Positions 380 to 62,651 of a stretch of DNA of 64,000 nt are shown piece by piece. Made by a program: the position numbers and the translations under genes. Within the stretch, counting starts at the first letter, position 1; every line of letters starts with the position of its first letter. The stretch lies in the sequence record MN445184; one strand, 5' to 3'. The DNA comes from Escherichia phage vB_EcoA_4HA11. A model generated the notes under the pieces. The model saw only the letters and a list, made by a program, of their open reading frames with translations, made no database searches and was not told the origin of the DNA.

Positions 380-690
380 GACATATCCTCATAATTAGAT
401 AGATTGATCAAGAAGGACAGGTTCCGGTCATATATGAGGTCAATGGCCTTGCGGCTACCCACAGCCTCACATGTCCAATAACTGTAATTCCCTGCGATCT
501 TCAATGCTAGTCGGACGACATGACGCCTCATATTGTACTGAGCCAACTGATATCGGGCGCGTGTCTTCTTGCGCCAGCATTGATTCTCCGCTTTGTACTT
601 GTAGAGGATCATCAGGCGAACGGCTTTGTACAGGCGCTTTTCAGCGCCCTTGGATTTCTTTGATACACGAATCAGGCTACCCATGATCAA
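376..690 (-). CDS. hypothetical basic protein
   Basis: 104-aa ORF, 4-bp overlap with the SbcC-like gene, same strand as neighbours. Confidence 0.4.
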   Translation of the reverse strand: MIMGSLIRVSKKSKGAEKRLYKAVRLMILYKYKAENQCWRKKTRARYQLAQYNMRRHVVRLALKIAGNYSYWTCEAVGSRKAIDLIYDRNLSFLINLSNYEDMS

Positions 691-3022: not shown

Positions 3023-4138
3023 TTATGCATCCAATGTGTTCAGGCGTTGTTGGGCAGCATTATAGAATTGTTCTGCTAATTTGCAAACATTTTCAGGGCG
3101 CTGGATATTATTGGCGGCGCGGATATCTTTCTTCAAGACTTCCACCGCATCAGTAGCCACCATCTCTTCAGTGACTTCTACCTTCTCGGAAGCAACAGTA
3201 ATCGTCCGATCGATGAAGTTGTAATCGATGCATTTACAGCGCTTCAATGCGTCACAGAACTTTTCATAATGCTTGGCATTGTCACGGTTCTGTACAATCA
3301 CCTTAACGATTTGCCCTTCAATACCCAAAACATTGTTTAACCAATCGGGGTCGATCCAATTACCTTCAGTATCAGAAGACATTTGGGTGTAGTCGTATTC
3401 CACGAACCGGAACAACGTTTGTTGTTCGTTGTTGGGGATAAACAATTCCCCGCCATTCATGTCGTCTACATAGAATCCTCGGTTCGTCCCGTCTTTGTGG
3501 TCTTCCCAGGTAAGGTGATAAGGAGTCCCAATATACTGAATGTTACCTTCCATCGAACGGGTATGGAAATGTCCGGTATCCACGCGCTCGAATTTCGAAA
3601 GGAGCGCCAAGTCGATCTGACCTTTATCACATACAGAGGACTGGTACATTTTGAACCCTGCCAACTCCAGATGCGCAAAACAGTACTTGGCGTCTGTATC
3701 TTGTATCGCTTTAATGGACGCATCATAGTTCTCTTTGTTAATCCACGGCAGTAGGAGGGTCTTGACACCTTCAATCATTACTTCAGTTGGTTCGCTGTAA
3801 TAATGATAAACATCCGGTGCCAATTCATTAAGATAAGAAGGCCAGTTAATACGATTGGACTCTTCTAACGTGATATCATGGTTGCCGACGATGCCATTCC
3901 ATTTAATACCTGCTTTGCGCAGCGCTGGCGTCAATTCATCTTTCAACCAATCTTTATCGCGACCATACATGAATTTGCGAACATCAAACGTATCACCAAA
4001 TTGCCAAACTTCTTTAATATCGGCGTCAACCAATTCTGGAATAAAATAATTGATGAGATAATTCTTTATGAATTCTCGAACGTAACGGGAACCATTACGG
4101 CTCCCAATATGTAAATCGCCAATTTTAGCAATCGCCAT
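3023..4138 (-). CDS. gp47: SbcD/Mre11-like nuclease subunit (T4 gp47-like)
   Basis: 371 aa; calcineurin-like phosphoesterase motifs (GDLHIG, GNHD, GHFH); paired with SbcC-like gene. Confidence 0.85.
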   Translation of the reverse strand: MAIAKIGDLHIGSRNGSRYVREFIKNYLINYFIPELVDADIKEVWQFGDTFDVRKFMYGRDKDWLKDELTPALRKAGIKWNGIVGNHDITLEESNRINWPSYLNELAPDVYHYYSEPTEVMIEGVKTLLLPWINKENYDASIKAIQDTDAKYCFAHLELAGFKMYQSSVCDKGQIDLALLSKFERVDTGHFHTRSMEGNIQYIGTPYHLTWEDHKDGTNRGFYVDDMNGGELFIPNNEQQTLFRFVEYDYTQMSSDTEGNWIDPDWLNNVLGIEGQIVKVIVQNRDNAKHYEKFCDALKRCKCIDYNFIDRTITVASEKVEVTEEMVATDAVEVLKKDIRAANNIQRPENVCKLAEQFYNAAQQRLNTLDA

Positions 4139-4931
4139 TATTTTGTTGCTCCCGTTCTAATGCTCGTTTCTTTGCTTCTTCCCAATCTGGTTCCATAGAA
4201 CATATTTCGTCTTCCAGATTGAATTGAGTAGAGCCGAAGTCATAGTCTGAATTATCTTCGGCGTCGGCGGTAATGGTATTTTCACTCTTTGTGAGACATT
4301 GAAGTATACCGCGAGGAATTTTCTTATTCTTTTCCTCTTCTTTGATGGCGATTTGCTTTTGGCGTTCCTTTTCGCGCTGGGCTTCTTTCTTAGTTTCAAA
4401 ATTTCCGATACGCTCACGAAAGTCCATTGTTATACCAGTGCTGTCTACGAATGTCTGTTGCTGGAAGTCTGGGTCATCTGATAATGCAGCGAAACCACCT
4501 GCTTCTTCAAATGAACGCAACTTGATATAATTGTGTTCTTCTTCACTGGTGAGTTTCTTGGCGAATGAACGATCGGCGCACATCGTTACCCAAGAGAAGA
4601 AATTGATTTTTCCTTTCTTGCCGATATGACTGACGTCAAATGTATGGAGGTAACGAAGGATGTTGACAACGGCCTCACTGACCATGTCTTCGCGGTATGG
4701 ATAATCACGATAGTTGTAGCGCATACTCATGTTCTTAATAATCATCTGAACATTCATGGCCACATAATTGGGGATTCTTGGTAGGGGTGTTCCTTCGGCC
4801 AAAGCCTTTTTGCGAGCCGGAATCCAATCTCTCAATATTCCAACAACACGGTCATTATCTTCGTCTGTGAAATATTTGGTGACGTTATCACCCCTGTCTA
4901 CAAAATTCATACCCATCGTGATAATCCTCAA
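4125..4931 (-). CDS. gp55: late-transcription sigma factor, gp55-like, with extra charged C-terminal tail
   Basis: Central region (RDW..., MRYNYRDYP..., RYLHTFD, FAKKL) parallels T4 gp55; sits next to 47/46 as in T4. Track start is TTG; in-frame ATGs at 4916 and 4910 with GAGGA upstream are likelier. Confidence 0.55.
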   Translation of the reverse strand: MRIITMGMNFVDRGDNVTKYFTDEDNDRVVGILRDWIPARKKALAEGTPLPRIPNYVAMNVQMIIKNMSMRYNYRDYPYREDMVSEAVVNILRYLHTFDVSHIGKKGKINFFSWVTMCADRSFAKKLTSEEEHNYIKLRSFEEAGGFAALSDDPDFQQQTFVDSTGITMDFRERIGNFETKKEAQREKERQKQIAIKEEEKNKKIPRGILQCLTKSENTITADAEDNSDYDFGSTQFNLEDEICSMEPDWEEAKKRALEREQQNNGDC

Positions 4932-6265: not shown

Positions 6266-7983
6266 ACCTCAAACACTGCATCGGTGAACCAGGTTGGGAA
6301 GAATTCTGGGTTGCGCATCATAAGAGATTCAAAAGATGAATCAATGATGTATGTCGCAGCCCAGTCATCAACACCCCTGACCGAACGCCCACACATTTGA
6401 ACAATGCGCAGTACTGCATTGCGGAAATATGCCGACGGATCCACTGAATTGATATGTGCTATCAGTGGATCGCCCAGATAATCATAAGGGACTTTGATCA
6501 GTATTTGGAAACGGCTGTAATCCCCTTTGAAATCATAACCTTCTTCCATAGCCGGACTGGCAATGACGCATGGGGACTTTGTTCTAAAAGCATTTTCCAT
6601 AATATCCATCAACGCCTTTCGGGTACGCGGAACATGGATAAAATTCTGATATTTGCTGAATTTTTGTATTGCCAAGGCGCGATCATAACTCACTGTATGG
6701 ATAATGCCGGACTGACCTGGGTGGAACGCGATTATTTCATCAATATATTCCGTCAACCTTTTCATTTCATAGTCGCCCATATTGTTAGTCATCTTCACTA
6801 TGGGCATATAGTTGACTTTTCTGTTTTCAATTGGGATAGGATTGCCGATCTGAATGGAATGATAATCCCCCTGTCGAATACCCAATGAACGAGCATACGA
6901 ATCTATACCACAGATCGTTGCTGACATATGAACGTGATAATCGGCTTTTCGGAATAACCCGAATTCACTTACATCAGAAGGCATAACGGGTTTAAACCGA
7001 ATAAAGTCATCTCCCTTTTCCTGTACGATAAAGGTGCTGGCCTTTGTCTGAGACATAATACCACAATAATCACTCAAGTTATGCAAGACATCTATAATGT
7101 CTGCGAGTTTCATCACTTGGCTTTCACTCAGGCGGTCATCTTCAACCAATTCTTCAAGAACTTCCAACAAAGACTCCACTTTAAGATGGAGGTCTTCAAA
7201 CATCGAATGCATTTCACCAGACAAAGAATACAACTTGCCCAAGACATAGTCCTTGGTGCGTTCTACGATATCGGCAATGATAGAGACTATCTCCTTCCCT
7301 TCGGGGATAGTTCGCAGTCCGTCCACAGCCTTTGTATTGTATTCCATTATCGTGTGCTCTAGGAGCGTAGAGGGCATCTTATGACACTCGTCTAAGATCA
7401 GCATATCGGAACGGTTTTCAGGCTTCATACAGATGGTGGTGCACATCTCAATCATCATAGCTGCATTAGTGCAACGCAATGACGAAATATCAGTCCATAA
7501 ATTGCGCGCCTGTACATAAGGACAACGGCGTTTGCTACAATGCCCGTCGCGGCATGCTATACGGCATTGGACAGCGTTGTAATACACATCTGGGTGTACG
7601 TGGCAACGATAGTTCTTCTTGCCTTTCAGGATGTCTATCGCCACCGCCTTTTCAGCAGCATACTGATCTTGTAGACCTTTGGTAGGCGTACTGATAGACG
7701 TGCGGAATTGTCCATAAGGATCGGCCTGTAAAACCAAATGACGAATCACTTTATGAATTGTTGTCCCAATCAAAGATTTCCCCACGCCAGTTGGGGCTTC
7801 AATGATTACGTGTTTGACCTTTTTGTTGATAAGCGCATCTATGGCTTCGACGATGCATTCCATCTGGCCTGGGTTCGCTTTGTCATATGGGAATTCATCT
7901 TTGGTAAGGCGTTGTATTTCTTCCACAGGAACCTTACGGCCTATGGCGTCAATCGCCTTTCGGTGTTGATTAAATGCTGTCAC
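6262..7983 (-). CDS. DinG/Rad3-family ATP-dependent DNA helicase with Fe-S cluster cysteines
   Basis: Walker A APTGVGKS, DEAH-type box LILDECH, Cys cluster CRIACRDGHCSKRRCPY; GTG start preceded by AGGAGG. Confidence 0.7.
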   Translation of the reverse strand: MTAFNQHRKAIDAIGRKVPVEEIQRLTKDEFPYDKANPGQMECIVEAIDALINKKVKHVIIEAPTGVGKSLIGTTIHKVIRHLVLQADPYGQFRTSISTPTKGLQDQYAAEKAVAIDILKGKKNYRCHVHPDVYYNAVQCRIACRDGHCSKRRCPYVQARNLWTDISSLRCTNAAMMIEMCTTICMKPENRSDMLILDECHKMPSTLLEHTIMEYNTKAVDGLRTIPEGKEIVSIIADIVERTKDYVLGKLYSLSGEMHSMFEDLHLKVESLLEVLEELVEDDRLSESQVMKLADIIDVLHNLSDYCGIMSQTKASTFIVQEKGDDFIRFKPVMPSDVSEFGLFRKADYHVHMSATICGIDSYARSLGIRQGDYHSIQIGNPIPIENRKVNYMPIVKMTNNMGDYEMKRLTEYIDEIIAFHPGQSGIIHTVSYDRALAIQKFSKYQNFIHVPRTRKALMDIMENAFRTKSPCVIASPAMEEGYDFKGDYSRFQILIKVPYDYLGDPLIAHINSVDPSAYFRNAVLRIVQMCGRSVRGVDDWAATYIIDSSFESLMMRNPEFFPTWFTDAVFEV

Positions 7984-8118
7984 GTTGTTCCTCCTTTGGA
8001 TTCTGTTATAGTTTACCCGAATCCCAACAACGAAAAAGCCGAGGCATTAACCTCGGCTTCTCCTTTTAGCCTTGCGCCGCTGCACTGCAGACATGCGCTG
8101 GGCCGACGCCTGGTGTGA

Positions 8119-8433
8119 TTACTGGCCGTTGGCAGCAGCTTTCAGACCTTCACCGACTTTGAATTTAACTACATTTTTCGCTTCGATCTGGATCTGTTGT
8201 CCGTTCAGCGGGTTGCGGCCAGTGCGCGCTTCCTGATGTTTAACTTCGAACGCGCCGAAGCCTACGAATTGGACAGATTGGCCAGCCGCGACTGCAGTTT
8301 TCACGCCATTGATAAAAGATGCAACGATTTTCTCAGCTTCGCCTTTGGTCATACCCTGGGTTTGAGCGATGTGGGCGATAAAATCAGTACGGTTCATTCG
8401 GATTACTCCAGTTGGTTGTTTACGATGTTTCAC
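8119..8433 (-). CDS. HU/IHF-family DNA-binding protein
   Basis: MNRTDFIAHIAQ...GFGAFEV...RTGRNPLNGQ matches the HU fold signature; probable true start ATG 8397 with GGAG SD (92 aa). Confidence 0.85.
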   Translation of the reverse strand: MKHRKQPTGVIRMNRTDFIAHIAQTQGMTKGEAEKIVASFINGVKTAVAAGQSVQFVGFGAFEVKHQEARTGRNPLNGQQIQIEAKNVVKFKVGEGLKAAANGQ

Positions 8434-8480
8434 TACAAGAGGACTACAGCTTACCTAACAAATATTATTGAATAAAGCGT

Positions 8481-9275
8481 TTATTTGCCGACGTTCAGCA
8501 TTTTACCTGAGCCGGATCCGTCAACGATTAGAGTACATTTCCCACTGTTGGCGCAAGATTGCAACACCATGTTATATTCGTGTTGTAAATATTCAGGTGT
8601 CAGAGATGTCGTCAGTTTCTGATTCGCCTTGGCTTCTTGGTCGCGAATTTCAACGTTCTTTCTTGCTGTATCCAAACGTTTGTCGGCCATGACATTATCA
8701 CGGATAGATTGCTCAATCGAAGGATCTGTCAGCGCCTTTTTCACCAACACACGTGTGATTGTGAACATGCCAGGCGCAGCAGTTTCCAATTGCTGCTGGG
8801 TGCGTTCCTTGATCATCTTTTCTAACTCAGCCCGTTGGGTGTGAATTGTCATAGAATCCAAAGAGGAAACGGCGTCCATCGTTGAGGATGCTGCGGCGGT
8901 TTTAACCAGGTTGAATCCCACCGCTATCGTGCCGTCACCGAGTTCAGCGCTCTGACCTGCAAATTTGGTATGGAACCAAGGAACCTTCGCGACGTTCGGT
9001 GTGTAATAAACGTCCACATCCAGATCTTCCAAGGTCAGGTTGTCTTTGGCCTTTGGCGTCATTTTCGTCAGACTCACGACGGCTTCTTTAGTCGTATAGA
9101 CATCTACACTTGAAACGAAACTGGTGTAGATACCTGCGGTTACAGGGTTCATGTCCACTTCACCCCATTGGGTTCGAACACCGACGTTTCCTTCATCGAT
9201 AACACCGCCGCAGCCCGAAAGAAGGCTTGCCGCTAGGACCATAATTGCGCCAAATACCAGTTTCTTGAACATCAA
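8481..9275 (-). CDS. lipoprotein, possibly SPFH/band-7-like
   Basis: Signal peptide plus lipobox MFKKLVFGAIMVLAASLLSGC; ATG at 9272; domain assignment is tentative. Confidence 0.55.
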   Translation of the reverse strand: MMFKKLVFGAIMVLAASLLSGCGGVIDEGNVGVRTQWGEVDMNPVTAGIYTSFVSSVDVYTTKEAVVSLTKMTPKAKDNLTLEDLDVDVYYTPNVAKVPWFHTKFAGQSAELGDGTIAVGFNLVKTAAASSTMDAVSSLDSMTIHTQRAELEKMIKERTQQQLETAAPGMFTITRVLVKKALTDPSIEQSIRDNVMADKRLDTARKNVEIRDQEAKANQKLTTSLTPEYLQHEYNMVLQSCANSGKCTLIVDGSGSGKMLNVGK

Positions 9276-13668: not shown

Positions 13669-14172
13669 TCAAAATTGGAATGTTTGTTTCATAACGTTCA
13701 CCATGTAGGATGGATCTACTGGTGTTCTGTTATACGTGATCTTGCCCATGCCATTCAGACGTTCGACAATGCGCTCGGCATTCTCTTCTACTGCTGCCTG
13801 GGTCGGTTGGTAATCGTTCAAATAGATCGCGAGTTCCTGTCGATTGTCGGACGTCACCTGATTGCGGAGCGAAGGATAGTTGACAACATACCCACGAGAA
13901 ATCAGTTCGGCAACAAGCTGATCGTAACGCTCGATCAAATAAATGAGTTTGTCGCGGAAGAACAGCACATGACCTTCGTTGAGTTTGTACTGCTTTGGAG
14001 CGCCCTTGAGATTACGGCGTTTTCCATTCACCACGTTGAGGACAACAGGCGCAAGTTCTTTATACTCGGCAAGGAGGTGTTGGTCGCAAAGAGATTCAAC
14101 GGGAATAACATTGATGCGAGTCATGGTATAGTTCCTGCATTTCAAATCGACGGGGTAATCATACCCCGCCAT
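13669..14172 (-). CDS. denV: pyrimidine-dimer DNA glycosylase (endonuclease V, DenV)
   Basis: MTRINVIPVESLCDQHLLAEYKELAPV... closely parallels T4 endonuclease V N-terminus ([27 protein letters not shown]); likely start ATG 14124. Confidence 0.85.
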   Translation of the reverse strand: MAGYDYPVDLKCRNYTMTRINVIPVESLCDQHLLAEYKELAPVVLNVVNGKRRNLKGAPKQYKLNEGHVLFFRDKLIYLIERYDQLVAELISRGYVVNYPSLRNQVTSDNRQELAIYLNDYQPTQAAVEENAERIVERLNGMGKITYNRTPVDPSYMVNVMKQTFQF

Positions 14173-47921: not shown

Positions 47922-48632
47922 ATGATCGTCCTGACAGAAGGAATTGCTTCTAAAAGAATCAAATCATATGCTTCTTCTAGAGGTGGAATATTTCACGGAT
48001 TTGTCGGTGGTAAATTTGTCACCAACCAAACTAAGTGTATTTTGTCTTGCGAATTTGGTCATGAATGGAACTCAGCAACTTATGCGAATTTGATAAATAA
48101 AGGAAGTTGGTGTCCTTCGTGTCGTGGAAACAAGAAGATCTCAAATGAAGAAGCTAAAATCAGGATATCGGAGTACGCCGTAAGCAACGGTGGTAAATTC
48201 ATAAATTTCATTGGCGGGAAGTACAAAGACAACGTGACAATTTGTGTCATGGAATGTTCTGAAACACACAGGTGGGAATCCAGGTACGGTAATTTAGTCA
48301 ACAGCCGAAGTTGGTGTCCGTATTGCGCAGAATCGGGTTACAATTATTCTAAGGAAGGTTTCTTATATATTCTAGTCAACGACGAAGGTTGTATGAAAGT
48401 GGGAATAACCAACTCACCTAAGAAACGCATAAATTGTTTAAGAAGCAGCACCCCGTTTGACTTCAACGTTCTAGAAATATTCAATTCAACCGACGGATTA
48501 TTTGTTTCCAGGTTGGAAAGAATTGCCCATAGAATGTGTAAGAGCGCGGGATATAAGGATTTTGACGGTGCTACCGAATGGTTTGTATATGACGGGTCAG
48601 TCGTAGATTTTATCAGAAATATTTTGAAGTAG
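47922..48632 (+). mobile_element. T5orf172/GIY-YIG-superfamily endonuclease-like gene with two N-terminal zinc-finger repeats
   Basis: Two repeats of C..C..H.W...WCP.C; C-terminal GFLYILVNDEGCMKVGIT...ATEWF; plus strand inside minus-strand structural block; AAGGTG SD. Confidence 0.55.
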
Positions 48633-48659
48633 CCATGACTTTACCCTCAATTTTGAAGG

Positions 48660-48667
48660 TATTTAGT
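48660..48667 (-). promoter_or_regulatory. extra copy of ACTAAATA motif on the 3' side of the plus-strand insertion
   Basis: Same 8-mer; no minus-strand start codon within 50 nt. Confidence 0.2.
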
Positions 48668-48938: not shown

Positions 48939-49748
48939 TTATCCCATCATGAAATCAATGGGGTATTGCTGACCAGTACGCAATTCTTCCTCCAACCGCT
49001 CTATCTCGGTCTCGGCCTCACTGAACATACTATCACCATCCAGTTCGATACCACCAGGGAGACGGATGCCTCTTGCCTTCTTAAGCACCTCTGCCCAACG
49101 GCGCTTGACCAATGCAGTCGCATACGCTTTCAACCACATATCATTCCATGCTTCAGCGTTTTCTTCCGATTCGGGGTCGATATTTTGATAACAACGAAAA
49201 GCCAGGGTTTCATCAACAATGGCAGCAAACTGCGGGTAAAGGCGTCGCTGGAACTTCTTGTACACAAAATTACGGCGAACATTTAAGACGCTTGTGATAT
49301 CCGACAGGCGTTGTTGCATGGAAACATAATCAATGAGACGAATAGAAACCAGCGCTGCTTTGGGGACAAGCATTGCTTGAGCCATTTGCCATTGAGGAGT
49401 TGCCCAGTTTCCGATTGACTCAATAGGAGGTCCAGGGATAACTTCAATCACATCGTCAATATCATCGGGAAATTCTATATACCCCTTGTCAATATCTTCT
49501 TGTTTAACTTGGTACAGGAAGAACGCATCTTGGCTACCATCACGATGATATTCCCAAAATTTCTGCAGAGCATCATCGACTGCATCTTCGACTTGTGAAC
49601 TGTCAAGGTTAATTTGGATCACAGGAGCGCCCAATTTACGCAAGACATAATTCATAAAAGATTTTTTGTCTCGAATCTTATTGACGGCCATTGTTATTCC
49701 CCTTTTGCTGCAAATCAGATACAGTAATCCGCAGTGTGCGAACATCAT
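48939..49748 (-). CDS. neck/head-completion protein (gp13-like by synteny)
   Basis: Likely start ATG 49691 with AAGGGG SD. Confidence 0.4.
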   Translation of the reverse strand: MMFAHCGLLYLICSKRGITMAVNKIRDKKSFMNYVLRKLGAPVIQINLDSSQVEDAVDDALQKFWEYHRDGSQDAFFLYQVKQEDIDKGYIEFPDDIDDVIEVIPGPPIESIGNWATPQWQMAQAMLVPKAALVSIRLIDYVSMQQRLSDITSVLNVRRNFVYKKFQRRLYPQFAAIVDETLAFRCYQNIDPESEENAEAWNDMWLKAYATALVKRRWAEVLKKARGIRLPGGIELDGDSMFSEAETEIERLEEELRTGQQYPIDFMMG

Positions 49749-50019
49749 CTGAAAGACTGCTGCTATTGAGTTTTAACTCAGCCATGTTTTGTTTGACATA
49801 TGCGAGGTCAGTATTCATGATCGCCATACGTTCACTCATGTCATTCACTTTCTGAAGAACTTGATCCATCTTGTTGGAATCTCGTTCCAATACATTCACG
49901 CGCGTTTCCATCCCGCCCATGAACCAAAGGAACGATGCTGCCGAGACCAATGCAGAAGCCACGACAGCGGTTAAGATACCACGGATGTCAAGCCCCGTTC
50001 TTTCAGCTTGCGTCGCCAT
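49678..50019 (-). CDS. membrane-anchored coiled-coil protein
   Basis: AGGAGG SD; N-terminal TM segment ILTAVVASALVSAASFLWF then coiled coil. Confidence 0.45.
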   Translation of the reverse strand: MATQAERTGLDIRGILTAVVASALVSAASFLWFMGGMETRVNVLERDSNKMDQVLQKVNDMSERMAIMNTDLAYVKQNMAELKLNSSSLSDDVRTLRITVSDLQQKGNNNGRQ

Positions 50020-50290
50020 TCTGACCTCCTTCGGGGATTTCGATCCCCAACTTTTCGGCCATCATTTTGATTGTCGCCTCCAGATTAGATATCTGGTTTG
50101 ATTGTTCAACAATGGTGGCTTCACGGGTTTCATTGCGTTGACGGGCTTGCAATGCAGCCATGCCAGCGGCGTGATCGGTGCAAATAATCGCGCCAGGGCA
50201 AGAACTGCTTCTCAACATGGATGCGTGCCCCTGTACTTTCACTCCACGCATATCTTTATCCTCTATTGGTTTGGTGGGCTTTACGCCCAC
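50003..50290 (-). CDS. small hypothetical protein
   Basis: Track start is GTG; likelier ATG 50251 with GAGGA SD. Confidence 0.35.
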   Translation of the reverse strand: MGVKPTKPIEDKDMRGVKVQGHASMLRSSSCPGAIICTDHAAGMAALQARQRNETREATIVEQSNQISNLEATIKMMAEKLGIEIPEGGQNGDAS

Positions 50291-50303
50291 CTTTCAACAT
50301 TAT

Positions 50304-53300
50304 TTATGCCAGAGCAATAAGACGGAAGTCTTTGAATGATGGAGGAGCAACGCGGTTCCCCCGTACAAGCGCTCGGACTTTCAGGCCAACAAACGGGTTA
50401 TTGCTCGCCACAGTCTTGTCATACTCATATTCAAAGAATGTGGAACCGTCGTTAACCAGAGGCGAAGTTGGGGTGACGTCTTCCCAAGCCACACTATCCA
50501 TCTCTTGCCCTGCTCGTAGAAGTTTCACCTGCACCTTCATCGAAGACTGAGATGGGAGCATTGCACCAAAGAACAACTTCACAGTAGAACACGGATTATC
50601 AAATCCGATGTCCTTTGTCACGTATTTGAAGACATCTTCAAATGGATCCACACCGTATGAGTTGAAGATTACGCTCAGGTCATCGCCATCAATCATTGGA
50701 GCAGTGTACACGTTGTTTTCACTACGCGTCATGGTGGCTCGGATTTGGAAATCCCCGACCTGACGATAGATACCTTCAGTCGGCAATGCCACGTCAGTGT
50801 CAGTTTCAAACTCAGCCCAATCAGACATAGAATTTGAAGTGGCATCGCGATAACGGTATTCCAATTTCAGAATTGAACCTTCCAGAGCCGAATTGGTAAC
50901 GCTGGCATAGAACATATCAACCAGATAATTGCCCAAGAAAGAAGCATTATCTCCACCGATTTGTCCATTGCTGTCTGCTGCCGTACCGACGTCAATCTTG
51001 AATGAAGTATAGCTCGCATCTGTCACAGTAAACGTTTTGTTAAGTTGTTCAGGAGTAAAGCCACAACCGCCTGTCAATTCAGAAAGAGTGACATTGTTCC
51101 CAGCAACCAAACCATGACCAGGTGCAAACACAGTCACAACAGAAGACCCGCTTACGCAGTTCAGAGTGTTCAATCCCAACGGACGTTGTTTTGGCCCGAG
51201 CTTCGGATCAAATGTTACAACGTTCTGTCCCGCAGCGAAGTTACAACGATATATGCGGAATTTCATATCAGCCATTTGGTTTGGAGACCATGTAGAACCG
51301 TTTGAAGAAGTGAAGAACACCCCTGTATACGGTTGTTTGGCGATATATTCGTTGGACAGAAGGTTTTTCTTGCCCATTTCCGCGATATACGCGTTGTAAT
51401 CCTGAGTATTCGCCAACAAAACGATAGCAAACTCAGTCGATGCTTGCAGATACACCGGATAATCAAAGGTGAACTTCGTACCGCCGGAAGAGTCTGTAGA
51501 GATCGTCACTTCAGACGGGTTCAAAGTTTTACGAGTAATGACTGTATGAGAAGGTAAGCCATTCTCCATCTCGCGAATTTCCAGAGTGATCGGAACATCA
51601 CGTGACTTGGTAGAGAAGAATACTTCCACGCCTTCAATATACTCGCCGCCATTCTTAGTCGCTACCATAAACGATTGGGCAATCGGATCACGCCATTGGT
51701 CGACCACAACTTCAGAAGTGCTGGTTTCGGTGCGAGTACTAGCAGTGTAACCCAGGACACGAGTGTTGACAAAGGTCTTTTGAATACCTTGTTTCTTACC
51801 GAAAGATTTATGAACAATTTCTGCATTGGTCAGTGTATCATCCGCAGATTTACTGTCAACAGGGCTATCCGTTAAGCGGAACACGTTATCGCCTGTGTTG
51901 AACTTGATTGTATCGTTCTGTGGAACGCGGAATATACCTTTAACAGCACCATTGGCATCAGTGGTGATTGGGTCACCGAAATTACCACCATTCGGTTTGC
52001 AATACAGATTGACGTCACGACCAGAGAAGAACGCATACATACGAGTGAAAGGTCGCAGCCCAGATGCGTCGAAAGAAATATCGATCTCGCGCATGTATGG
52101 GATAACTTGCGTCTCCACAATCTGTTCACCAGTCATGGTCGTGGTTGTTTTGTCCGTGTATGTATATGTGGTGACATCACGGGCAGAAACAGTCGTGCGG
52201 TAACGATATCCCCACCACACACCACCAGCGCCATGCGGTTCCCAAACACGATCAGAAACAGAAACAGTACGCCATGTTCCGTACACTGAACCTTCTTGTA
52301 CAGTACCACGGGTGTTGATCGTTTCATTGATAATACGCGGCGCAACATAATAGTTTTCGAACCAGTAGTCTGTGGTCGGGTTAATCTTCAAGAAACCTTC
52401 CCAATTGAATACTGCATACGGGTTAACGTTGATCGTCGTCGTCGCATATTCTTGGTTCACTGAGATTTCAGGCGTGTAATTACAAACCACCATCCCATCC
52501 ATCACTTTGTTCCAGCCAACAGGAGTCATGTCAACAACGTTCTGTTGTACAAACGGGCGTAGACGTCCGTTTTCGGTATCGATAGAACCCATCCAATCTT
52601 CAGACAAGTCATCAATCAACCGGAAGTCTTTGAACGGATCAGCTGCAATACCATTTTTGAAACGGGGATTGCCCGTGATGGGGTCGAACACTTGCTGTGT
52701 CATCGCTGAAGATTCCAACTGTGACAGAGAGGTATAGTATTCAACATTGGAAATACGGGTTTCCAGTTTACCGATATCGCGCATCGTATAACGACGATTG
52801 TCAATAGTGCGAATTTGGATATCATCAATATTCGGCGTATACGGTGGGATCAACAATTCATACAAACGCATGGCGTTCGCTGGGATTGCTGGAGAAGCCA
52901 GATTGTTCGAACTGATGCCACGAGCCACACCAAACACACCGTTATCTGCCAGATAAATCGCGTCAATACGCGGCAGATAATATTCTGTGTCCAGAATAAC
53001 TGCAGTGTTTGGACGAACCATATCTGTGTCAGAAGTTCCGTTGGTGATTTTCGGACGGAAATCCAAACTATCTGCCAGGCCGTACACCGCGCCTGATGTA
53101 GAAGATGTATAATTCGGGATATCTTTATAATCCATCGAAGTATACGAATCAGCAGAGAAGAAATCACCGGAACTGTGGGCGAAGTATTGATACACCACTG
53201 TATACGTCCCTGAGATTGCTCCAGCGCTGGATAACAAGTTAGACTTGTAATACCCTGCATCACGCTGTCCGCCATCTAGGACGAAGCTGGAGGTCACGTC

Positions 53301-55142
53301 TGCGCCAGTATCGTTTTTGACCGACACCAATTTCCAACCATCGTGATTCGCCAAAGGGCGGCTAGTCTGCGAGGTGAACGTCACTGTTTCAGTTGTTTCA
53401 GTGATGGTCTTCGTTTTGATTGTGGCCGTGGTACGAATCATCAGCGCCAGCAAATTGATTGACTGGTTAGCATTACCACTGCCCAGAGAAATCTGCAACG
53501 CCGAACCGACCGGAGAACCAGTCAAAGACAAAGAACCAGAGATATCGAACTGCGCTTCGGAACCATCAGATTTCGCTGCAGAGTACAACGAAAATTCTGG
53601 GGAAAAACTATATCCCAATGGAGCAGAAATAGAACCCGCGCCGCTGTTGTCCAACGTCACTTTATACGTTCTGAGAACAGTGTAGTTGATATCCACGGAG
53701 CCAGTTGGTGCTAAAGTCTTGACACCGAATACCGGAAGAGAGAAGATCAGATCTATCATAGAACTCTGGTTAAACTGATTGGATTCCAGTTCAGCAGAGA
53801 ACATGGTGATACCGCTTTCTTCGTAAGACACTTTGGTGATAGTGGATGCATCGCCAGTAACGACCAGGTCGCGCATATACAGACGAAATTCTGTTGAATT
53901 ACGTTCAGCTGATATACAAAGTGCTGTAGCCTGGGTAACGCCTGAAGCATTCAGTAATTTGTATCGAACGGTGCGGGATATCACTGGCACACCTTTAGAA
54001 TTCTTAGTGACCAGATAATTGCCTGTGGCCACCGCAACAGGGGTGTTGTTCAGGACATCGGTATCCCGCGCCTTATCAACGATCACCAACTCTTCCCCGA
54101 CGTTTTCGATACGGCGACCGCGAACATAGGAAATACCTGGTTTCATTACAGACACGAATTTACTTTCGTCGCCGCCATCAGCAGCATTGAATACACCACC
54201 ATTGTTATTGACTTTCAGGTGTTCGCGGATGTCGATCTGGTGCGTTGAAACGTTGTAATCGCCGTTGGTTTCATACGTCCGTTGGGCCAACGTGTCTTCC
54301 AGAATATTATAGGTGGACTGAGTCACCATAGACTGGATTTTACCATCACGAACTTTGGCCAGTTCAACAAAGTCTTCAACCACAGCATCATAATCAAATC
54401 GAGATAAGACCAGATCTATTCGAAGACGATGAGCGCCTGGGGCTTTGGAGTTAATCGTTCCCTGAGCATTTGAATAAAGGGATTCATCTTCTGTTTCAGT
54501 GACAATGGTTTCGGTGACTTTAAATCCGATGCGGTGGGAAGTGATGTTAGAAGTTTTGTCAACGATAAGAGTTGCGTCATCAACGTCTAGGAACATCCCA
54601 CGAATGAAGTAAACGCCTTTCGTCATACGAGCGACGATAGAACCAGTCACTGCAGCTGCGATACCATAACCAATACGAATGAAATTATCATTCACGTCGT
54701 AAGTCTGGAAATACAGATTATCGTTAACATGGAATCCGTCAGCATTACCCGCTTCAGTCATCTCAAGGATAGCCAGCATCGTATCAGGAGCAGACAGATC
54801 ACGTTCAAGAGACAACACACGCGCTTTGGCATTATTGTCCTTCCCCAAAACGTAGAGTTCAGAAATACCTTCCAGATCAGTGAATTCAGTACCACCAGCC
54901 AAAGTGAATTTCAAAGAAACTGCGGCATTGGTGATCGTCAGACCGCCAGGGATAACCATAGAACCATCTTTGAACAAATGGTTGCCTAATTTTTCAATTT
55001 GATCCTGAAGAATAGTCTGCATCTGGTTCAGTTCGCGAGTCTGAACCTTGATAGGCATCGGACGAAAAAGAATCCGTGAAAAACGTTTCCCAGGATTCCA
55101 GTCATCCCAATACGGGCGACGGTTTAAATTTGTAGATTGCAT
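50304..55142 (-). CDS. very large virion structural protein (1612 aa), function unassigned
   Basis: Single uninterrupted ORF with ATG start, own ACTAAATA motif and upstream terminator; Gly/Thr/Ser/Asn-rich. Confidence 0.7.
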   Translation of the reverse strand: MQSTNLNRRPYWDDWNPGKRFSRILFRPMPIKVQTRELNQMQTILQDQIEKLGNHLFKDGSMVIPGGLTITNAAVSLKFTLAGGTEFTDLEGISELYVLGKDNNAKARVLSLERDLSAPDTMLAILEMTEAGNADGFHVNDNLYFQTYDVNDNFIRIGYGIAAAVTGSIVARMTKGVYFIRGMFLDVDDATLIVDKTSNITSHRIGFKVTETIVTETEDESLYSNAQGTINSKAPGAHRLRIDLVLSRFDYDAVVEDFVELAKVRDGKIQSMVTQSTYNILEDTLAQRTYETNGDYNVSTHQIDIREHLKVNNNGGVFNAADGGDESKFVSVMKPGISYVRGRRIENVGEELVIVDKARDTDVLNNTPVAVATGNYLVTKNSKGVPVISRTVRYKLLNASGVTQATALCISAERNSTEFRLYMRDLVVTGDASTITKVSYEESGITMFSAELESNQFNQSSMIDLIFSLPVFGVKTLAPTGSVDINYTVLRTYKVTLDNSGAGSISAPLGYSFSPEFSLYSAAKSDGSEAQFDISGSLSLTGSPVGSALQISLGSGNANQSINLLALMIRTTATIKTKTITETTETVTFTSQTSRPLANHDGWKLVSVKNDTGADVTSSFVLDGGQRDAGYYKSNLLSSAGAISGTYTVVYQYFAHSSGDFFSADSYTSMDYKDIPNYTSSTSGAVYGLADSLDFRPKITNGTSDTDMVRPNTAVILDTEYYLPRIDAIYLADNGVFGVARGISSNNLASPAIPANAMRLYELLIPPYTPNIDDIQIRTIDNRRYTMRDIGKLETRISNVEYYTSLSQLESSAMTQQVFDPITGNPRFKNGIAADPFKDFRLIDDLSEDWMGSIDTENGRLRPFVQQNVVDMTPVGWNKVMDGMVVCNYTPEISVNQEYATTTINVNPYAVFNWEGFLKINPTTDYWFENYYVAPRIINETINTRGTVQEGSVYGTWRTVSVSDRVWEPHGAGGVWWGYRYRTTVSARDVTTYTYTDKTTTTMTGEQIVETQVIPYMREIDISFDASGLRPFTRMYAFFSGRDVNLYCKPNGGNFGDPITTDANGAVKGIFRVPQNDTIKFNTGDNVFRLTDSPVDSKSADDTLTNAEIVHKSFGKKQGIQKTFVNTRVLGYTASTRTETSTSEVVVDQWRDPIAQSFMVATKNGGEYIEGVEVFFSTKSRDVPITLEIREMENGLPSHTVITRKTLNPSEVTISTDSSGGTKFTFDYPVYLQASTEFAIVLLANTQDYNAYIAEMGKKNLLSNEYIAKQPYTGVFFTSSNGSTWSPNQMADMKFRIYRCNFAAGQNVVTFDPKLGPKQRPLGLNTLNCVSGSSVVTVFAPGHGLVAGNNVTLSELTGGCGFTPEQLNKTFTVTDASYTSFKIDVGTAADSNGQIGGDNASFLGNYLVDMFYASVTNSALEGSILKLEYRYRDATSNSMSDWAEFETDTDVALPTEGIYRQVGDFQIRATMTRSENNVYTAPMIDGDDLSVIFNSYGVDPFEDVFKYVTKDIGFDNPCSTVKLFFGAMLPSQSSMKVQVKLLRAGQEMDSVAWEDVTPTSPLVNDGSTFFEYEYDKTVASNNPFVGLKVRALVRGNRVAPPSFKDFRLIALA

Positions 55143-55174
55143 TTTGATGCTCCATAGAGTGCCATTTATAGAGA

Positions 55175-55182
55175 TATTTAGT
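55175..55182 (-). promoter_or_regulatory. late-promoter-like motif ACTAAATA
   Basis: About 33 nt upstream of ATG 55142, just downstream of a terminator. Confidence 0.35.
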
Positions 55183-55204: not shown

Positions 55205-55233
55205 AAATAAAACCCCCGCCGAAGCGGGGTTTT
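55205..55233 (-). terminator. rho-independent terminator after the 770-aa tailspike gene
   Basis: CCCCGC-UUCG-GCGGGG (55214..55229) then UUUUAUUUCU. Confidence 0.65.
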
Positions 55234-57599: not shown

Positions 57600-60380
57600 T
57601 TAAATAGAAGAATCCAATATACGGTAACTAATTAACTTAGTAGGGTCTACCGGATTAATCAGATTGTAGTATCGTGAGGCTACATAATCGTTCTCGGAAG
57701 AGAACATACCAACATACACTTTAGCGCCCACCCCAGAACAAGCATCCCCACCAGCATTGCTATCTGAGAAGAACGTTAATGGGGAAGTTAATCCGAATAT
57801 AGAATTAAATGGTACGGCTAAATAAGCGCCTCGGAATGACCGTCTGATTCTCTTACCCGTCTGAATATTAAGAATACTCCACCAGAAATATCCTGGTTTA
57901 GCACCAATAGCTATATGATATGGTACACCACTTTGTAGTTTAAGGTCGTTAGGTAAATCCCCAGATAAAATTTGGGTTGTACCATCGCCCCCCAATAGCA
58001 AAGCAATTGTTTGTTTTCCAGAAGCGTCTATAACTAATTGAAGATGAAGACTGTTGGATGTATCACTAAACCCTGAACCAATGGCCATGAAGTTAAATAC
58101 TTCAGCTCCAGATATGGTGGGTACTACAACAGCAGCCATGGTAATACCTTCTGGACCTGCTGTTCTTGAATACAGTAATTTATCTTTGTTGGCTTGTGAT
58201 AGTCTCAGACCATTTACTTGCCCTACAGAAGATGGGACACTTACATAAACAGGTGTAGTGCTAACACCATCAAATGTAGGGGTCTCGTTCATGGTTTGCA
58301 AACCAGTCTTGGAATAATTAACCAATCCGTTAATGCTCAGGTCGGAATTGGTGGGGTTGATAATATTGTTATCACCAATAAAGTTAATGCCCATATAACC
58401 AGTCTCAACCACACCATTAATGGTGACACTACAATCATTAGACAGGAACTGAAAATTGCCTGCACTAGAGTTAGCACCTGAACCACTATTCGCGGCATAA
58501 TTGAGTCCTACGAATCCGTTGATAACTGCATCACTTTTGTTAAATACGATGTTGTAGAAAGTGTTGTTAGCATTGATGCCGTTACGATTGGTGTTCAATC
58601 CGTTCATGGAAATTGAATATGAATCGCTAATCTCAATGCCATTCCCGCCACAATCTTGTACCTCAATACCATTAATAACCATATTCTGGCTGTTATTAAT
58701 AGTAATGCCTGGAAACTGTCCTACTGTACCATAAGGTTGCCAGTTAGCCCAAATGAATTTACCGCCAATAATACGACCATTACCACAACCATCAAGAACT
58801 AGACATTGTTTACCGCAGGTATTAACCTGGATATTTGTCCAAGTCCAATCAGTAGTAGCACAACGGACACCCACCTGATTGATGTGGTTGACTAAAAGAG
58901 AATCTGTAGTAACACTAAAGTTACCACTATCAATATTTAACCCATATTCATCAAAACCTGCTATATGGACCTTAGAAATACACAAGTCCCGTCTTGGGTC
59001 TGCGGTAGTGTGGAACGGATAATCGGCTGAGAGACCTGAAGGAGTTTCTACATAGATACCTGTTGTGCCCGCAGTAAATGACGTGCCTTGTTGTGCACCT
59101 GTGCCATATACCCCAAAGGCGTCTAATACAATAAGGGAGCATGTATCTTTTATGGTAATACAATTCCCAGTAGCAGAAGGCAACTGATGCAACCTTGAGT
59201 AATGTAATCCAGACCCATAAATAGACGACGTATTATATTTTAACTGGATATTGCTAACGTAATGTACACCAGTTAATTGTGTGGCCTTACCACTATCCAC
59301 ACAAGATTGTACTGGAATAGTATCATCATTAGAACCACCCAAAGCACCAAACATGAATGGGTTAACTCTATCAGCATTAACACGTAACCATGCTGCGCCG
59401 CCAACAGTTTTGATCACAGTACCGTTATTATCAGTCTTTCCTGTACCATCAATTAACGCACGGAATACCCCTCCACCAAGAAGAGTACCCGCAGTGTGTT
59501 GCTTAAGAATAATGCGTTGTCCATCCATAGTGGGTTCAGTATTCCTGAGATCAGCAACAGAATGGCATTCTCCAATATACTTGGCACCATCATTGCGCCC
59601 CAGAGTGTTTATCACATTAATAAATGAATCTTCTAAAGGCAACAAATCAACCTGCACATCACCTGGGTTGTAATTCAATTTCCCAGCAGATACAGAAGAA
59701 ATGACAGAACCATCAGGAATGGTTGGTAAACCATAACTGGTTTGCGTCGCTATATCATAAACAACTTTCTTCCCATCCAACAAAGATATGGTGTCCGTAC
59801 TAACGATGACTTCAGAGTCTTTTACATTAGCAGAACGGGCGATTTCTTGAATACTTCGGTCAAACGCCGGACTGATATTCGGTTGTTTAACAGACATTTC
59901 AGCGACTACCCAAACGCCTGCAGTCAGTGCAGTTTGCAAAGACACTTTCCCTGTCGTGCTGTTATAGGAATATTCAATTTCGGGTGTTTTGTACTCGCCA
60001 CCGATATAAAGAGATTGGACACCATAGGATGTGAAATCAGGAGTGAACTCGGTTTCACCCCCTACGGCTTGAAATTTGTATATGCGGATACCTTTGGCTG
60101 TATCTTCTGGCGAAAGAATTTTATCGAATAAGCAATACACAACATCGCCTTTGGACAATGCGCGCCCGAGATTCAACGTATTTCCTTCGATTTCAAAGTT
60201 GTCTAAGGGAACTTGCATACCACCGTTGATTGTGACTACGCCAGTGACAGGATAGAACGGCAAGGAAAGGAAAGTTTCTCCACCAACATTTGATTTATAC
60301 GTGAAAGGAATCTGGTGGGGAGCTGTGATTACGCCGCCGAATAATTCTTCTACATTTCTGGTCATTTGAAAATACCCCAT
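57600..60380 (-). CDS. tailspike protein (926 aa)
   Basis: Long ORF with repetitive beta-helix-like Gly/Asn-rich C-terminal half; alternative in-frame ATG at 60365. Confidence 0.7.
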   Translation of the reverse strand: MGYFQMTRNVEELFGGVITAPHQIPFTYKSNVGGETFLSLPFYPVTGVVTINGGMQVPLDNFEIEGNTLNLGRALSKGDVVYCLFDKILSPEDTAKGIRIYKFQAVGGETEFTPDFTSYGVQSLYIGGEYKTPEIEYSYNSTTGKVSLQTALTAGVWVVAEMSVKQPNISPAFDRSIQEIARSANVKDSEVIVSTDTISLLDGKKVVYDIATQTSYGLPTIPDGSVISSVSAGKLNYNPGDVQVDLLPLEDSFINVINTLGRNDGAKYIGECHSVADLRNTEPTMDGQRIILKQHTAGTLLGGGVFRALIDGTGKTDNNGTVIKTVGGAAWLRVNADRVNPFMFGALGGSNDDTIPVQSCVDSGKATQLTGVHYVSNIQLKYNTSSIYGSGLHYSRLHQLPSATGNCITIKDTCSLIVLDAFGVYGTGAQQGTSFTAGTTGIYVETPSGLSADYPFHTTADPRRDLCISKVHIAGFDEYGLNIDSGNFSVTTDSLLVNHINQVGVRCATTDWTWTNIQVNTCGKQCLVLDGCGNGRIIGGKFIWANWQPYGTVGQFPGITINNSQNMVINGIEVQDCGGNGIEISDSYSISMNGLNTNRNGINANNTFYNIVFNKSDAVINGFVGLNYAANSGSGANSSAGNFQFLSNDCSVTINGVVETGYMGINFIGDNNIINPTNSDLSINGLVNYSKTGLQTMNETPTFDGVSTTPVYVSVPSSVGQVNGLRLSQANKDKLLYSRTAGPEGITMAAVVVPTISGAEVFNFMAIGSGFSDTSNSLHLQLVIDASGKQTIALLLGGDGTTQILSGDLPNDLKLQSGVPYHIAIGAKPGYFWWSILNIQTGKRIRRSFRGAYLAVPFNSIFGLTSPLTFFSDSNAGGDACSGVGAKVYVGMFSSENDYVASRYYNLINPVDPTKLISYRILDSSI

Positions 60381-60403
60381 AAGGATTTGCCAATATGGGG
60401 TAT
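60372..60403 (-). promoter_or_regulatory. 10-bp inverted repeat ATACCCCATA...TATGGGGTAT overlapping the ACTAAATA motif and first ATG
   Basis: Arms 60372..60381 and 60394..60403. Confidence 0.4.
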
Positions 60404-60408
60404 TTAGT
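60401..60408 (-). promoter_or_regulatory. late-promoter-like motif ACTAAATA
   Basis: Upstream of the 926-aa tailspike gene. Confidence 0.35.
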
Positions 60409-60439
60409 CTGAACTAATAAAATTTATGAACAAAGGTAT

Positions 60440-60470
60440 AATAAGAACCCCGCCAAAGCGGGGTTTTTGC
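60440..60470. terminator. terminator hairpin CCCCGC-loop-GCGGGG
   Basis: Stem 60448..60463, T-run on plus side, U-rich on minus side. Confidence 0.55.
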
Positions 60471-60480
60471 TCAAGATAAA

Positions 60481-62577
60481 TTAAAGTGTGTATGTTACAT
60501 AACTTCCATCTGGTTTTTTAGCAAGCAACCTCAATGCTCCGTCACTTCCGAAGAAGAATCCTATAGATGAATTATGTTCCAGAGCGCTCTCTGGTAATTG
60601 TAAAGGGGCAGCAGGTATACTCATATGCTTAAAGCCTAAGCGGTTAAGCTGAAACTCACCTACACGTACACCCTCCTGAATTGCCGAAAGCTTGACAATA
60701 CTTGCCTCACCCCCTGGTGTAGCAACCTGGCAATCTGCCGTCATAAGCAAAGATGGGTTTGTAGTACCACCCATAGCAGGTTGCATTGCAAGTGTCATTT
60801 GGTTGGCACTATGCTGAACATTGATATTACCTCCCTGAATATCGCTTATATAGGTACATAGTAATTTCTTAGTACCGGAACCAGCACAGGAAACATTACT
60901 TACTTCTGAAGACGGAGCGTATATAGCGTAACCTTGTGTAGTATATGCATGGATGTTAATACCACGAAGTCTACTACCTCCCTCACAGGTAAGCTGATTT
61001 AGGTTAGTTAAATCCTTATTCGCACCTACTACAGTAATGTTAGTAATATCATTGTTAGTACCCCTATCGAAGACGCCTTCCTTATGGGCCTCATAAGTAA
61101 CAACATTATCAATAATATTTTTCTGACCATCCCACCAAGCACCAATCCCCATACAATCACGAGTAATAATATTACGGATGATATGTTGAGTAGGTAGGTG
61201 GAACCATGGATACTCTGCGAGTGAGTAGTCATCCACACGTTCAGTTGGCGACCCTGTGTCAGCATTAACATCAATACCATCATAGTAACACTGGATTGTA
61301 GTTATATTGTCGAACACTAAACGGTAGTTCCTGGCTGAACGACCTCCAATTTCGTTCTGATAGGTTTTAATACCTGATTCTCCAACACGGTATGAGATTA
61401 AATCCCTTACTCCACCATCATGGTCTGTACCACCATCATTGCGAATGAACAGTACAGCGGAACCAGAGCCATATTTTATCTCACCCCCAACAACCCAGTT
61501 GCCAGTACCCCATGCAGTTGTATGATGGTTCTCAAATGTAATGCCCGATTCCAAAGCAATAAAATTGCGTGGATTCTTAACAAGAATCCTATTACATAAA
61601 GTAAATAGATAACCACCAAATGTAGCTTCTGGGTTCTCTACGATGATATTATCGCCGCTCATTATTCGCAAAGTAGCACCAGCAACCTGATTTTTTACAT
61701 TATCAGGAAGGTCGTCCCAAATATCTAAATCGTTAATATTTGGCTTATATCCAACATCCAAACGCTGCTGAACAGATGCCAGAACTTGTGTTGGGTCTGT
61801 AACCCAATTACCGTTTGCATCGAATCGGTAAACAGTATACGGCGTAGTTTTAGTATGCATGTGCGGTTTCTTAATTACTGAACCCGCACCCAAACCATTC
61901 CAAACCAACATACCATCGCCAATGAATTTTCCTTTGCATTCAATGATTAAAACTTTACCGCTAAAATCTACATTCTCATCTGCAGTAAAAGTGTAGTCAA
62001 CATCAATAAGCAATCCATCTACGGCTGCTGTCGCTGCATCCTGTAATGTAGAATAATCAGATAACTTTACTGAATATTTGAATTTCTTATTAGCTTCCTG
62101 CCTAAATGCAGCATCACCAACACTAACCCAAGCACCTAAACCAACGCCACCAGTTGATGCTGGAGTTGAACCAGCAGGAACAACTTTAGGTAATGCACCA
62201 TCCCATCGATATTTTTCATCATCGTGAACAAGAAGTTCATTTTTCACATTAATAGTATGGCCGAAATTAAAAGAACCAGGTAAAGTCACATATTCTTCGC
62301 GGCTTACTGCTAATTCCCCGAGATCAACAGAGCCAGAAGAATGAGTAAGGATGGCTTGTTCGTTCAGACTTATCGCAGTCGTTCCTGAAACAATACCTGA
62401 AGGAAGAGAATAAGCCCGTTGGGTAGACTCATCATAAATTACTTTAAATCCGCTGAGATCAATACCGACAGTGAAATAAATGACTTCGTCTTCTTTGACA
62501 CCGAAATTTCGAGCGATAGATTGTTTGTTAACTTCTATGGAAGTGGAGCCGCGTGGTTGATTGAATTGAGAAATCAT
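60481..62577 (-). CDS. tailspike protein (698 aa)
   Basis: N-terminal module shared with the 770-aa tailspike; remainder divergent. Confidence 0.7.
   Translation of the reverse strand: [698 protein letters not shown]
62098..62577 (-). repeat. N-terminal tailspike module, paralogous copy B
   Basis: Similar to 57069..57548. Confidence 0.7.
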
Positions 62578-62581
62578 GATA

Positions 62582-62613
62582 ATACCCCATAAAGGATGAC
62601 CAATATGGGGTAT
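62582..62613 (-). promoter_or_regulatory. 10-bp inverted repeat ATACCCCATA...TATGGGGTAT overlapping ACTAAATA motif
   Basis: Arms 62582..62591 and 62604..62613; GGGG of the 3' arm is the only SD-like element before ATG 62577. Confidence 0.4.
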
Positions 62614-62618
62614 TTAGT
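62611..62618 (-). promoter_or_regulatory. late-promoter-like motif ACTAAATA
   Basis: Upstream of the 698-aa tailspike gene. Confidence 0.35.
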
Positions 62619-62651
62619 CTGAATTAACAAAATTTTATAAACATGGATATA

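Follow-up and report, generated by a model that had tools for sequence, protein, structure and literature searches.

We conclude that the long gene that stands after the tailspike cluster and ahead of the neck genes in Escherichia phage vB_EcoA_4HA11 (sequence record MN445184) very probably encodes a late-expressed virion structural protein, an enlarged homologue of the DUF4815 tripod protein whose trimers most likely form peripheral baseplate prongs that may contact a conserved glycan. The gene, known as vriC or vrlC, was analysed in a stretch of 64,000 nucleotides (nt), here called the window, and is read from the minus strand (50304..55142) as one uninterrupted open reading frame (ORF) of 1612 codons and a TAA stop, beginning with ATG. 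The original prediction, made by a model from the DNA letters, of a single ORF of 1612 amino acids (aa) is thus borne out. The gene is a named and widely catalogued member of the phage core, and the family to which it is related has been described before.

The family to which VriC belongs is clear. Its Pfam match is to DUF4815 (PF16075), with a score of 206.9 bits (E 5.7e-61; cutoff 30), and is split into three stretches because of inserted domains; among the PHROGs it matches phrog_358 with E = 0, and NCBIfam has no model for it. PF16075 is carried by 120 of 120 homologues among the matches listed. Both family motifs, the N-terminal motif with its helix and the RRYTMRDIGKLE...NVEYY helix, are present in VriC and lie in regions that align to the Kayvirus protein, and in an alignment of 43 sequences P10, D14, Q34, R36, E37, M787, D789, I790, R796 and E801 are invariant. 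Only one protein in the PDB matches VriC by sequence, a 1152-residue "DUF4815 domain-containing protein" present in 15 entries (9EUF etc.), which phmmer aligns in four collinear stretches (E 5.4e-52). Entries 9EUJ, 9EUK, 9TIC and 9TIF-9TIH appear in the data-availability statement of a paper on the baseplate of Staphylococcus phage 812, a Kayvirus (PMC13433997), and Foldseek labels 9EUF and 9EUI as phi812 baseplate structures. We take this chain to be the tripod protein gp119, because phage JD007 encodes a 1152-residue DUF4815 protein just after its arm genes. When VriC is compared by BLASTP with the JD007 orthologue, our Kayvirus reference, the aligned blocks are collinear (Table 1) and hence place some 460 extra VriC residues at about 76-170, within 405-676 and at 1314-1456.

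Homology with the Herelleviridae tripod (gp119 of 812, gp106 of A511) is therefore full-length and collinear, running from the N-terminal motif to the C-terminal sandwich, and the same three-dimensional folds are found in both. VriC and gp119 (PDB 9EUF, 9EUI, 9EUJ, 9EUK, 9TIC) share three long helices with beta-domains, together with C-terminal sandwiches that resemble lectin (Cwp84) and carbohydrate-binding module (CBM) folds. They differ in that VriC is 460 residues longer, is only 26-27% identical and belongs to a phage with a Gram-negative host. The phage 812 protein is the sole solved relative of VriC, by sequence and by fold, and this supports the earlier suggestion that the ORF could encode a baseplate-associated protein.

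Structure prediction in segments gave a beta-rich, multi-domain architecture. The AlphaFold2 monomer models, built from the 43-sequence alignment in two overlapping pieces, have mean predicted local distance difference test (pLDDT) scores of 78.6 (residues 1-1135) and 84.8 (residues 1000-1612). They are about 95% non-helical, with some 75 helical residues contributed by helices 36-56, 281-293 and 787-815 and by short turns; no extended coiled coil is modelled, in keeping with what had been judged by eye from the sequence. By analogy, the three long helices would be the counterparts of the three "spine" helices of the tripod, and the body of residues 171-786, which is part of DUF4815 and has about 200 residues more than the Kayvirus protein inside 405-676, would be its "flap"-type region. 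Residues 816-1013, the putative "fibre" domain, probably fold only in the trimer, and the low confidence of the helices and hairpins between 803 and 990 is compatible with folding on trimerisation. The C-terminal half is modelled as a chain of lectin/CBM-like beta-sandwiches, a prediction that makes an adhesin plausible; its last domain, residues 1457-1612, is all-beta in the model and has no LysM-like helices. The richness in Gly, Thr, Ser and Asn remarked on at the outset proved modest, since Thr (9.7% vs 6.1%) and Ser (8.4% vs 6.3%) are raised relative to the other long ORFs of the window, whereas Gly (7.4% vs 6.8%) and Asn (6.3% vs 5.8%) are barely so.

Published proteomics place the protein in the particles of relatives. 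The original prediction would have been refuted by a protein absent from virions and assigned to a non-structural function; mass spectrometry of CsCl-purified virions of the Vi01-like phage Sajous1 lists VriC among the five most represented proteins (PMC10892097); VrlC is likewise abundant in the virion proteome of PhiM12 (PMC4621102). In the Listeria phage A511 the VrlC homologue gp106, which forms the "pyramids" of the baseplate, has been immunolocalised to that structure, as cited in PMC4621102, and its pyramids turn from an upward to a downward orientation on adsorption, as cited in PMC11406892. The Listeria link to VriC was measured on phages P100 and LP-048, whose homologues are 27% identical to residues 676-1312. 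Twelve trimers make up the tripods of phage 812: docked on loops of its gp7-like arm scaffold, they flip and refold, make contact with the cell wall and join in triggering (PMC13433997). For the Ackermannviridae, a 2024 review states that the makeup and function of the "prongs" are unknown, notes that these phages lack T4 gp9-gp12, and proposes VriC as the prongs from its resemblance to the A511 and phi812 baseplate proteins (PMC11721090).

Conservation of vriC is extreme among close relatives and extends far beyond them. Over its 4839 nt the gene is 100% identical to S8_157 of Salmonella phage S8 (Kuttervirus, Ackermannviridae), and 228 phage records contain full-length DNA matches, labelled "virulence-associated VriC protein", "VrlC protein", "phage structural protein" or "hypothetical protein". 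At the protein level, 149 phage records, those of the E. coli phages EP75 and SFP10 among them, show at least 99% identity; the figure drops to 84-85% for Ackermannviridae of Klebsiella and Dickeya, to 37-39% for Vibrio phages, to about 33% for the T4-like cyanophages and to about 26% for Herelleviridae, and 1690 phage records match in total. By comparison, of the 159 records that match the neighbouring tailspike gene TSP1 only 32 have it at full length, and in published work vriC serves as the conserved border of the variable tailspike/depolymerase region (PMC10199534). Length, which had been proposed as a point to compare among related phages, is constant, the 1600-aa form being held at 1570-1722 aa down to 31% identity in more than 1000 database homologues. 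Between host genera the least conserved regions are 101-200, 951-1000, the linker and 1400-1600; residues 76-170 in particular are only 15-22% identical to distant members. A search of 1.84 billion representative proteins with the last 299 residues yields only 214 relatives, in nearly every case as the C-terminus of a VrlC-sized protein, and for this reason we regard the module as family-specific and not as a shuffled receptor-binding cassette.

The genomic context is conserved as well. Reading through the locus, a gp6-like wedge gene, a PF23786 wedge gene and the gene for a 396-aa protein are followed by four tailspike genes, vriC, two small ORFs, gp13, gp14, gp15 and the terminase, so that the location between neck genes and tailspikes had been correctly assigned. 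Ralstonia phage RSP15 and Vibrio phage VP-1 keep this synteny (gp6-like wedge, PF23786 wedge, receptor-binding genes, VrlC, small ORF, gp13-15); in VP-1 the stretch from the wedge genes to vrlC holds no tailspike gene. The small ORF directly 3' of vriC, annotated as 52 aa in the S8 GenBank record and 82 aa in the EP75 RefSeq record, belongs to a family (phrog_4322/473) found directly after VrlC in RSP15 (13904-14107), VP-1 (13905-14120) and the Synechococcus phage S-MbCM100 (13323-13571; phrog_473, E 1.6e-34), positions being those of the stretches examined. It is thus present in four of the four Gram-negative-host lineages examined, from enterobacterial, Ralstonia, Vibrio and Synechococcus phages. 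BLASTP found no similarity between the 82-aa ORF and its positional counterparts, and it was the PHROG profiles that linked them. The vrlC gene and its small virion-protein gene form a conserved two-gene module, paralleling gp106 and gp107 of A511, in which the small gene is also the next one, and the 82-aa protein is a candidate partner of VriC. In Kayvirus, too, the tripod gene is part of a baseplate/receptor-binding block and has a small ORF next after it, but neither BLASTP nor PHROG profiles linked the phrog_4322/473 companion to the Herelleviridae small ORF (phrog_1074, which takes in A511 gp107 and the 52-aa Kayvirus protein).

The VrlC proteins of T4-like cyanophages (Kyanoviridae) and of the rhizophages PhiM9 and PhiM12 fit the same pattern: they are about 33% identical over VriC residues 2-1310, belong to phages with Gram-negative-type hosts, and are encoded after baseplate wedge genes and before the 82-aa phrog_473 virion protein. 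The cyanophage proteins differ in being longer (2442 aa in S-MbCM100), with different C-terminal regions.

The signals flanking vriC suggest a late gene. As judged from the alignment, its true start is the first ATG, at 55142, because the first matched block pairs VriC 5-75 with Kayvirus tripod 4-73 and includes P10 and D14, invariant across the 43 VriC homologues; the start of S8_157 in GenBank is annotated 28 codons too late. Upstream of it lies the octamer ACTAAATA, of which the window has 8 copies (1.8 expected), a count that none of 100 shuffles reaches. All 8 are on the minus strand; in seven cases a long ORF of that strand starts 21-45 nt further on, and the remaining copy, at 48667, stands ahead only of a 7-codon remnant copy of the gp14 start. 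Given this excess, the single strand and the spacing to ORF starts, ACTAAATA is a real recurring element that behaves like a late promoter, and the original claim that the ORF has an upstream motif of its own stands. The T4 late promoter, TATAAATA, is a comparable element. The claim of flanking terminators survives on one side only. The upstream hairpin at 55214-55229, with its G+C stem (-23.4 kcal/mol, z -5.05), is canonical and sets vriC apart from the tailspike cluster. The downstream hairpin at 50273-50291 is strong (-17.2 kcal/mol, z -4.8), but the sequence after it, AAACCAAUAG, has no U-tract, and so the hairpin is not a canonical intrinsic terminator; it is possibly an element that stabilises the transcript or causes partial termination.

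How might VriC act? By extension from the phage 812 system, VriC homotrimers would hang from the periphery of the Kuttervirus baseplate, appearing as the "prong-like" structures seen by electron microscopy beside the tailspike "stars". The N-terminal two thirds of the protein, with its three helices and beta-domains, would make up the trimer body and docking crevice, and the C-terminal third, the chain of lectin/CBM-like beta-sandwiches, would face the cell. The variable tailspikes would first bind and cut O-antigen or capsule; the invariant VriC trimers could then touch a conserved surface glycan, such as the lipopolysaccharide (LPS) core, and finally reorient as in phage 812, helping to fix the baseplate and relaying the signal for sheath contraction. 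VriC would thereby fill the role of the T4 gp9-gp12 periphery that is missing in the Ackermannviridae, and may, on this analogy, share its functions of irreversible anchoring and triggering.

Several points weigh against this reading. The models are monomers of what is probably an intertwined trimer, confidence is low across residues 803-990, and so are the global template modelling (TM) scores (0.17-0.50). A sequence search of the adjacent baseplate genes found no homologues of the 812 arm scaffold gp117 or the arm segment PF25691; phmmer against the PDB and Pfam searches of these neighbours (the gp6-like, PF23786 wedge and 396-aa proteins) gave only gp6-like, PF23786 and a sub-threshold BppL_N match. 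Pfam detects no LysM in VriC and the C-terminal 160 residues are modelled as all-beta, implying that the peptidoglycan-binding "hook" proposed for Gram-positive phages may not be conserved, although the Kayvirus tripod protein itself likewise has no Pfam LysM match. The literature searched holds no structure, immunolabelling or genetics for any Ackermannviridae VriC, nor was a Kuttervirus or other Ackermannviridae baseplate structure found there. Finally, the near-invariance of VriC across hosts is equally well explained by a purely architectural role.

Such a role, in which VriC scaffolds or braces the branched tailspike complex, with neither receptor contact nor a switch, is an alternative that we consider possible but doubtful. 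It would account for at least 99% identity in 149 records whatever the host and tailspike content, for the strict conservation of length, and for a C-terminal module that belongs to VrlC-type proteins alone, with no shuffling among receptor-binding proteins. Against it, the homologous tripods of 812 reorient and touch the cell wall (PMC13433997), and the C-terminal domains of VriC have lectin/CBM-like folds. The parts most divergent between host genera, the insert 76-170 and residues 1400-1600, are also those expected to diverge if they face the surface. The gene order in VP-1, where vrlC follows the wedge genes with no intervening tailspike gene, further argues that VrlC needs no tailspike complex to brace.

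We suggest, tentatively and as an idea that is rather unlikely to hold, that VriC and the 82-aa protein together constitute a conformational-switch adhesin of those T4-superfamily phages that lack gp9-gp12, in which the tripod flips when it meets the host, uses its CBM-like domains to bind a conserved glycan of the LPS core or outer membrane, and is the actual trigger of contraction. This would cover the Ackermannviridae, relatives such as RSP15 and VP-1, and the cyanomyoviruses. If it is true, the tailspikes only clear the way, and the tripod mechanism of phages of Gram-positive hosts is ancient and common across the Gram divide.

The comparison originally drawn with T4 fibritin (the whiskers, wac) and the gp12 short tail fibre holds for gene position only. 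In T4, gp12 and wac occupy the slot before gp13, and vriC lies in the corresponding slot between the baseplate/receptor-binding genes and gp13, just ahead of gp13/14/15. A long fibre analogous to either of these T4 proteins, or the "giant fibre" of the original prediction, is nonetheless very improbable. The long beta-hairpins of residues 924-1013 could form a short trimeric fibre segment, but neither Pfam, PHROG nor the PDB yields a fibritin, gp12 or other fibre-family match, only about 5% of residues are helical with no extended coiled coil, and the protein is a string of globular beta-domains homologous to the pyramid-shaped tripod. No sequence or fold relationship with the gp9-gp12 periphery or fibritin was found for VriC, which is non-fibrous, and on these grounds we rejected the fibritin/gp12 assignment.

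An enzymatic role, as a polysaccharide depolymerase or tailspike-like protein, is more improbable again. A weak Phage_spike_2 match (15 bits against a cutoff of 25) and a phmmer match to the HK620 tailspike (E 0.04), the only PDB match for residues 1314-1456 and judged spurious, could be cited for it, but such matches are sub-threshold or limited to a small non-catalytic domain, the models contain no beta-helix or propeller, and vrlC is treated as a conserved flank outside the variable depolymerase region (PMC10199534). Tail_spike_N is found in three of the four neighbouring tailspike proteins, one of which also has P22-tail, whereas VriC has neither. With no catalytic fold, no Tail_spike_N adaptor and only sub-threshold matches, this candidate was rejected.

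The name VriC was presumably copied from the vrl locus of Dichelobacter nodosus. That name is all that speaks for a phage-carried bacterial virulence factor, a reading we reject as having practically no chance of being right for a structural core gene that behaves as late-promoter-driven within a tail/neck morphogenesis block, recurs in 1690 phage records including strictly lytic families, has a product abundant in purified virions of a relative (PMC10892097) and homologous to a solved baseplate component, and encodes no toxin, secretion or enzyme domain detectable by Pfam or NCBIfam.

The preferred assignment of VriC to the baseplate has practical consequences. Many phage genomes proposed for biocontrol or therapy carry the label "virulence-associated" for vriC, and at least one paper counts VriC as a putative virulence factor, listing it among the putative virulence genes of Salmonella phages (PMC6783827). 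The label is a misnomer, and the identification of VriC as a core structural protein, most likely of the baseplate, corrects the annotation. VriC is the obvious candidate both for the Ackermannviridae prongs and for a contraction trigger that acts after the tailspikes, and the solved 812 homologue can guide experiments. The pairing of vrlC with a small virion-protein gene across four Gram-negative-host lineages likewise points to a concrete candidate for a two-protein complex.

Table 1. Coordinates in the window of vriC, its flanking signals and the predicted domains of its product, with the BLASTP blocks shared with the Kayvirus tripod protein.
Feature	Coordinates	Strand	Remarks
Late-promoter-like motif ACTAAATA	55175..55182	-	33 nt 5' of vriC ATG
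Ribosome-binding site GGAG	55150..55153	-	7 nt before vriC ATG, read directly from sequence
Intrinsic terminator of upstream tailspike (TSP1) gene	55214..55229	-	Hairpin CCCCGC-UUCG-GCGGGG, then UUUUAUUU
vriC/vrlC coding sequence	50304..55142	-	1612 aa + stop; DUF4815-family baseplate tripod homologue
aa 1-75, conserved N-terminus and first long helix (36-56)	54918..55142	-	Aligns with Kayvirus 4-73; first "spine" helix by analogy
aa 76-170, beta-domain	54633..54917	-	No counterpart in 1152-aa Herelleviridae tripod
aa 171-786, beta-rich body	52785..54632	-	pLDDT ~85-95; includes helix 281-293
aa 787-815, long helix	52698..52784	-	In most conserved stretch (RRYTMRDIGKLExRIxNVEYY); third "spine" helix by analogy
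aa 816-1013, very long beta-hairpins (924-1013)	52104..52697	-	Low monomer confidence
aa 1014-1120, beta-sandwich	51783..52103	-	pLDDT ~90; aligned with Kayvirus 682-785
aa 1121-1150, Thr/Ser-rich disordered linker	51693..51782	-	pLDDT <50
aa 1151-1313, "DPIAQSF" beta-sandwich (phrog_5986)	51204..51692	-	Highly conserved; resembles PHR, CBM and lectin folds
aa 1314-1456, extra domain relative to Kayvirus tripod	50775..51203	-	
aa 1457-1612, C-terminal beta-sandwich	50307..50774	-	Conserved end motif DFRxIALA; weakly aligned with Kayvirus 1011-1128
Stable hairpin GGUGGGC-GUAAA-GCCCACC	50273..50291	-	13 nt past vriC stop codon
82-aa ORF directly 3' of vriC	50003..50251	-	GAGGA before ATG; phrog_4322/473 "virion structural protein"
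VriC 5-75 = Kayvirus 4-73			BLASTP E 5e-9
VriC 116-405 = Kayvirus 24-287			BLASTP E 3e-10
VriC 677-1313 = Kayvirus 364-953			BLASTP E 8e-47
VriC 1457-1590 = Kayvirus 1011-1128			BLASTP E 0.007

Other features of the neighbourhood deserve mention. Between the 82-aa ORF and gp13 the window encodes a 113-aa protein (49678..50019, minus strand; phrog_3961) that begins with a hydrophobic helix and has a coiled coil for its tail, and a similar ORF of 116 aa occupies the same place in VP-1. The 396-aa protein of S8, encoded just upstream of the tailspike gene TSP4 (3120-4310 of the S8 stretch), contains repeated "STYNxKMTxxDxS" segments and gives the sub-threshold BppL_N match; no similarity was detected between it and its positional equivalents in VP-1 and RSP15, and in the Kuttervirus baseplate it may be an adaptor or a fibre. 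In RSP15 a gene for a radical-SAM protein (7566-8906 of the stretch) lies immediately upstream of vrlC, within the tail gene block.

The upstream regions (62560..62650 and 60350..60440, minus strand) of two tailspike genes, which encode proteins of 698 aa and 926 aa, are nearly identical. Each has an A/T-rich stretch, ACTAAATA and a ccccata...tatgggg hairpin in the 5' leader, a hairpin that the vriC leader does not have.

Finally, a 236-aa ORF on the opposite strand (47922..48632, plus) carries T5orf172, MUG113 and CapR domains, as in a GIY-YIG-like endonuclease. The gene lies in a 773-nt insertion between gp13 and gp14 that is absent from phage S8, the whole endonuclease region being present in 47 of 236 relatives. 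At the edge of the insertion (about 48620..48667, minus strand) are a duplicated ACTAAATA and a 7-codon copy of the gp14 start (MATSKYF*), a duplication that suggests a mobile, homing-type element.

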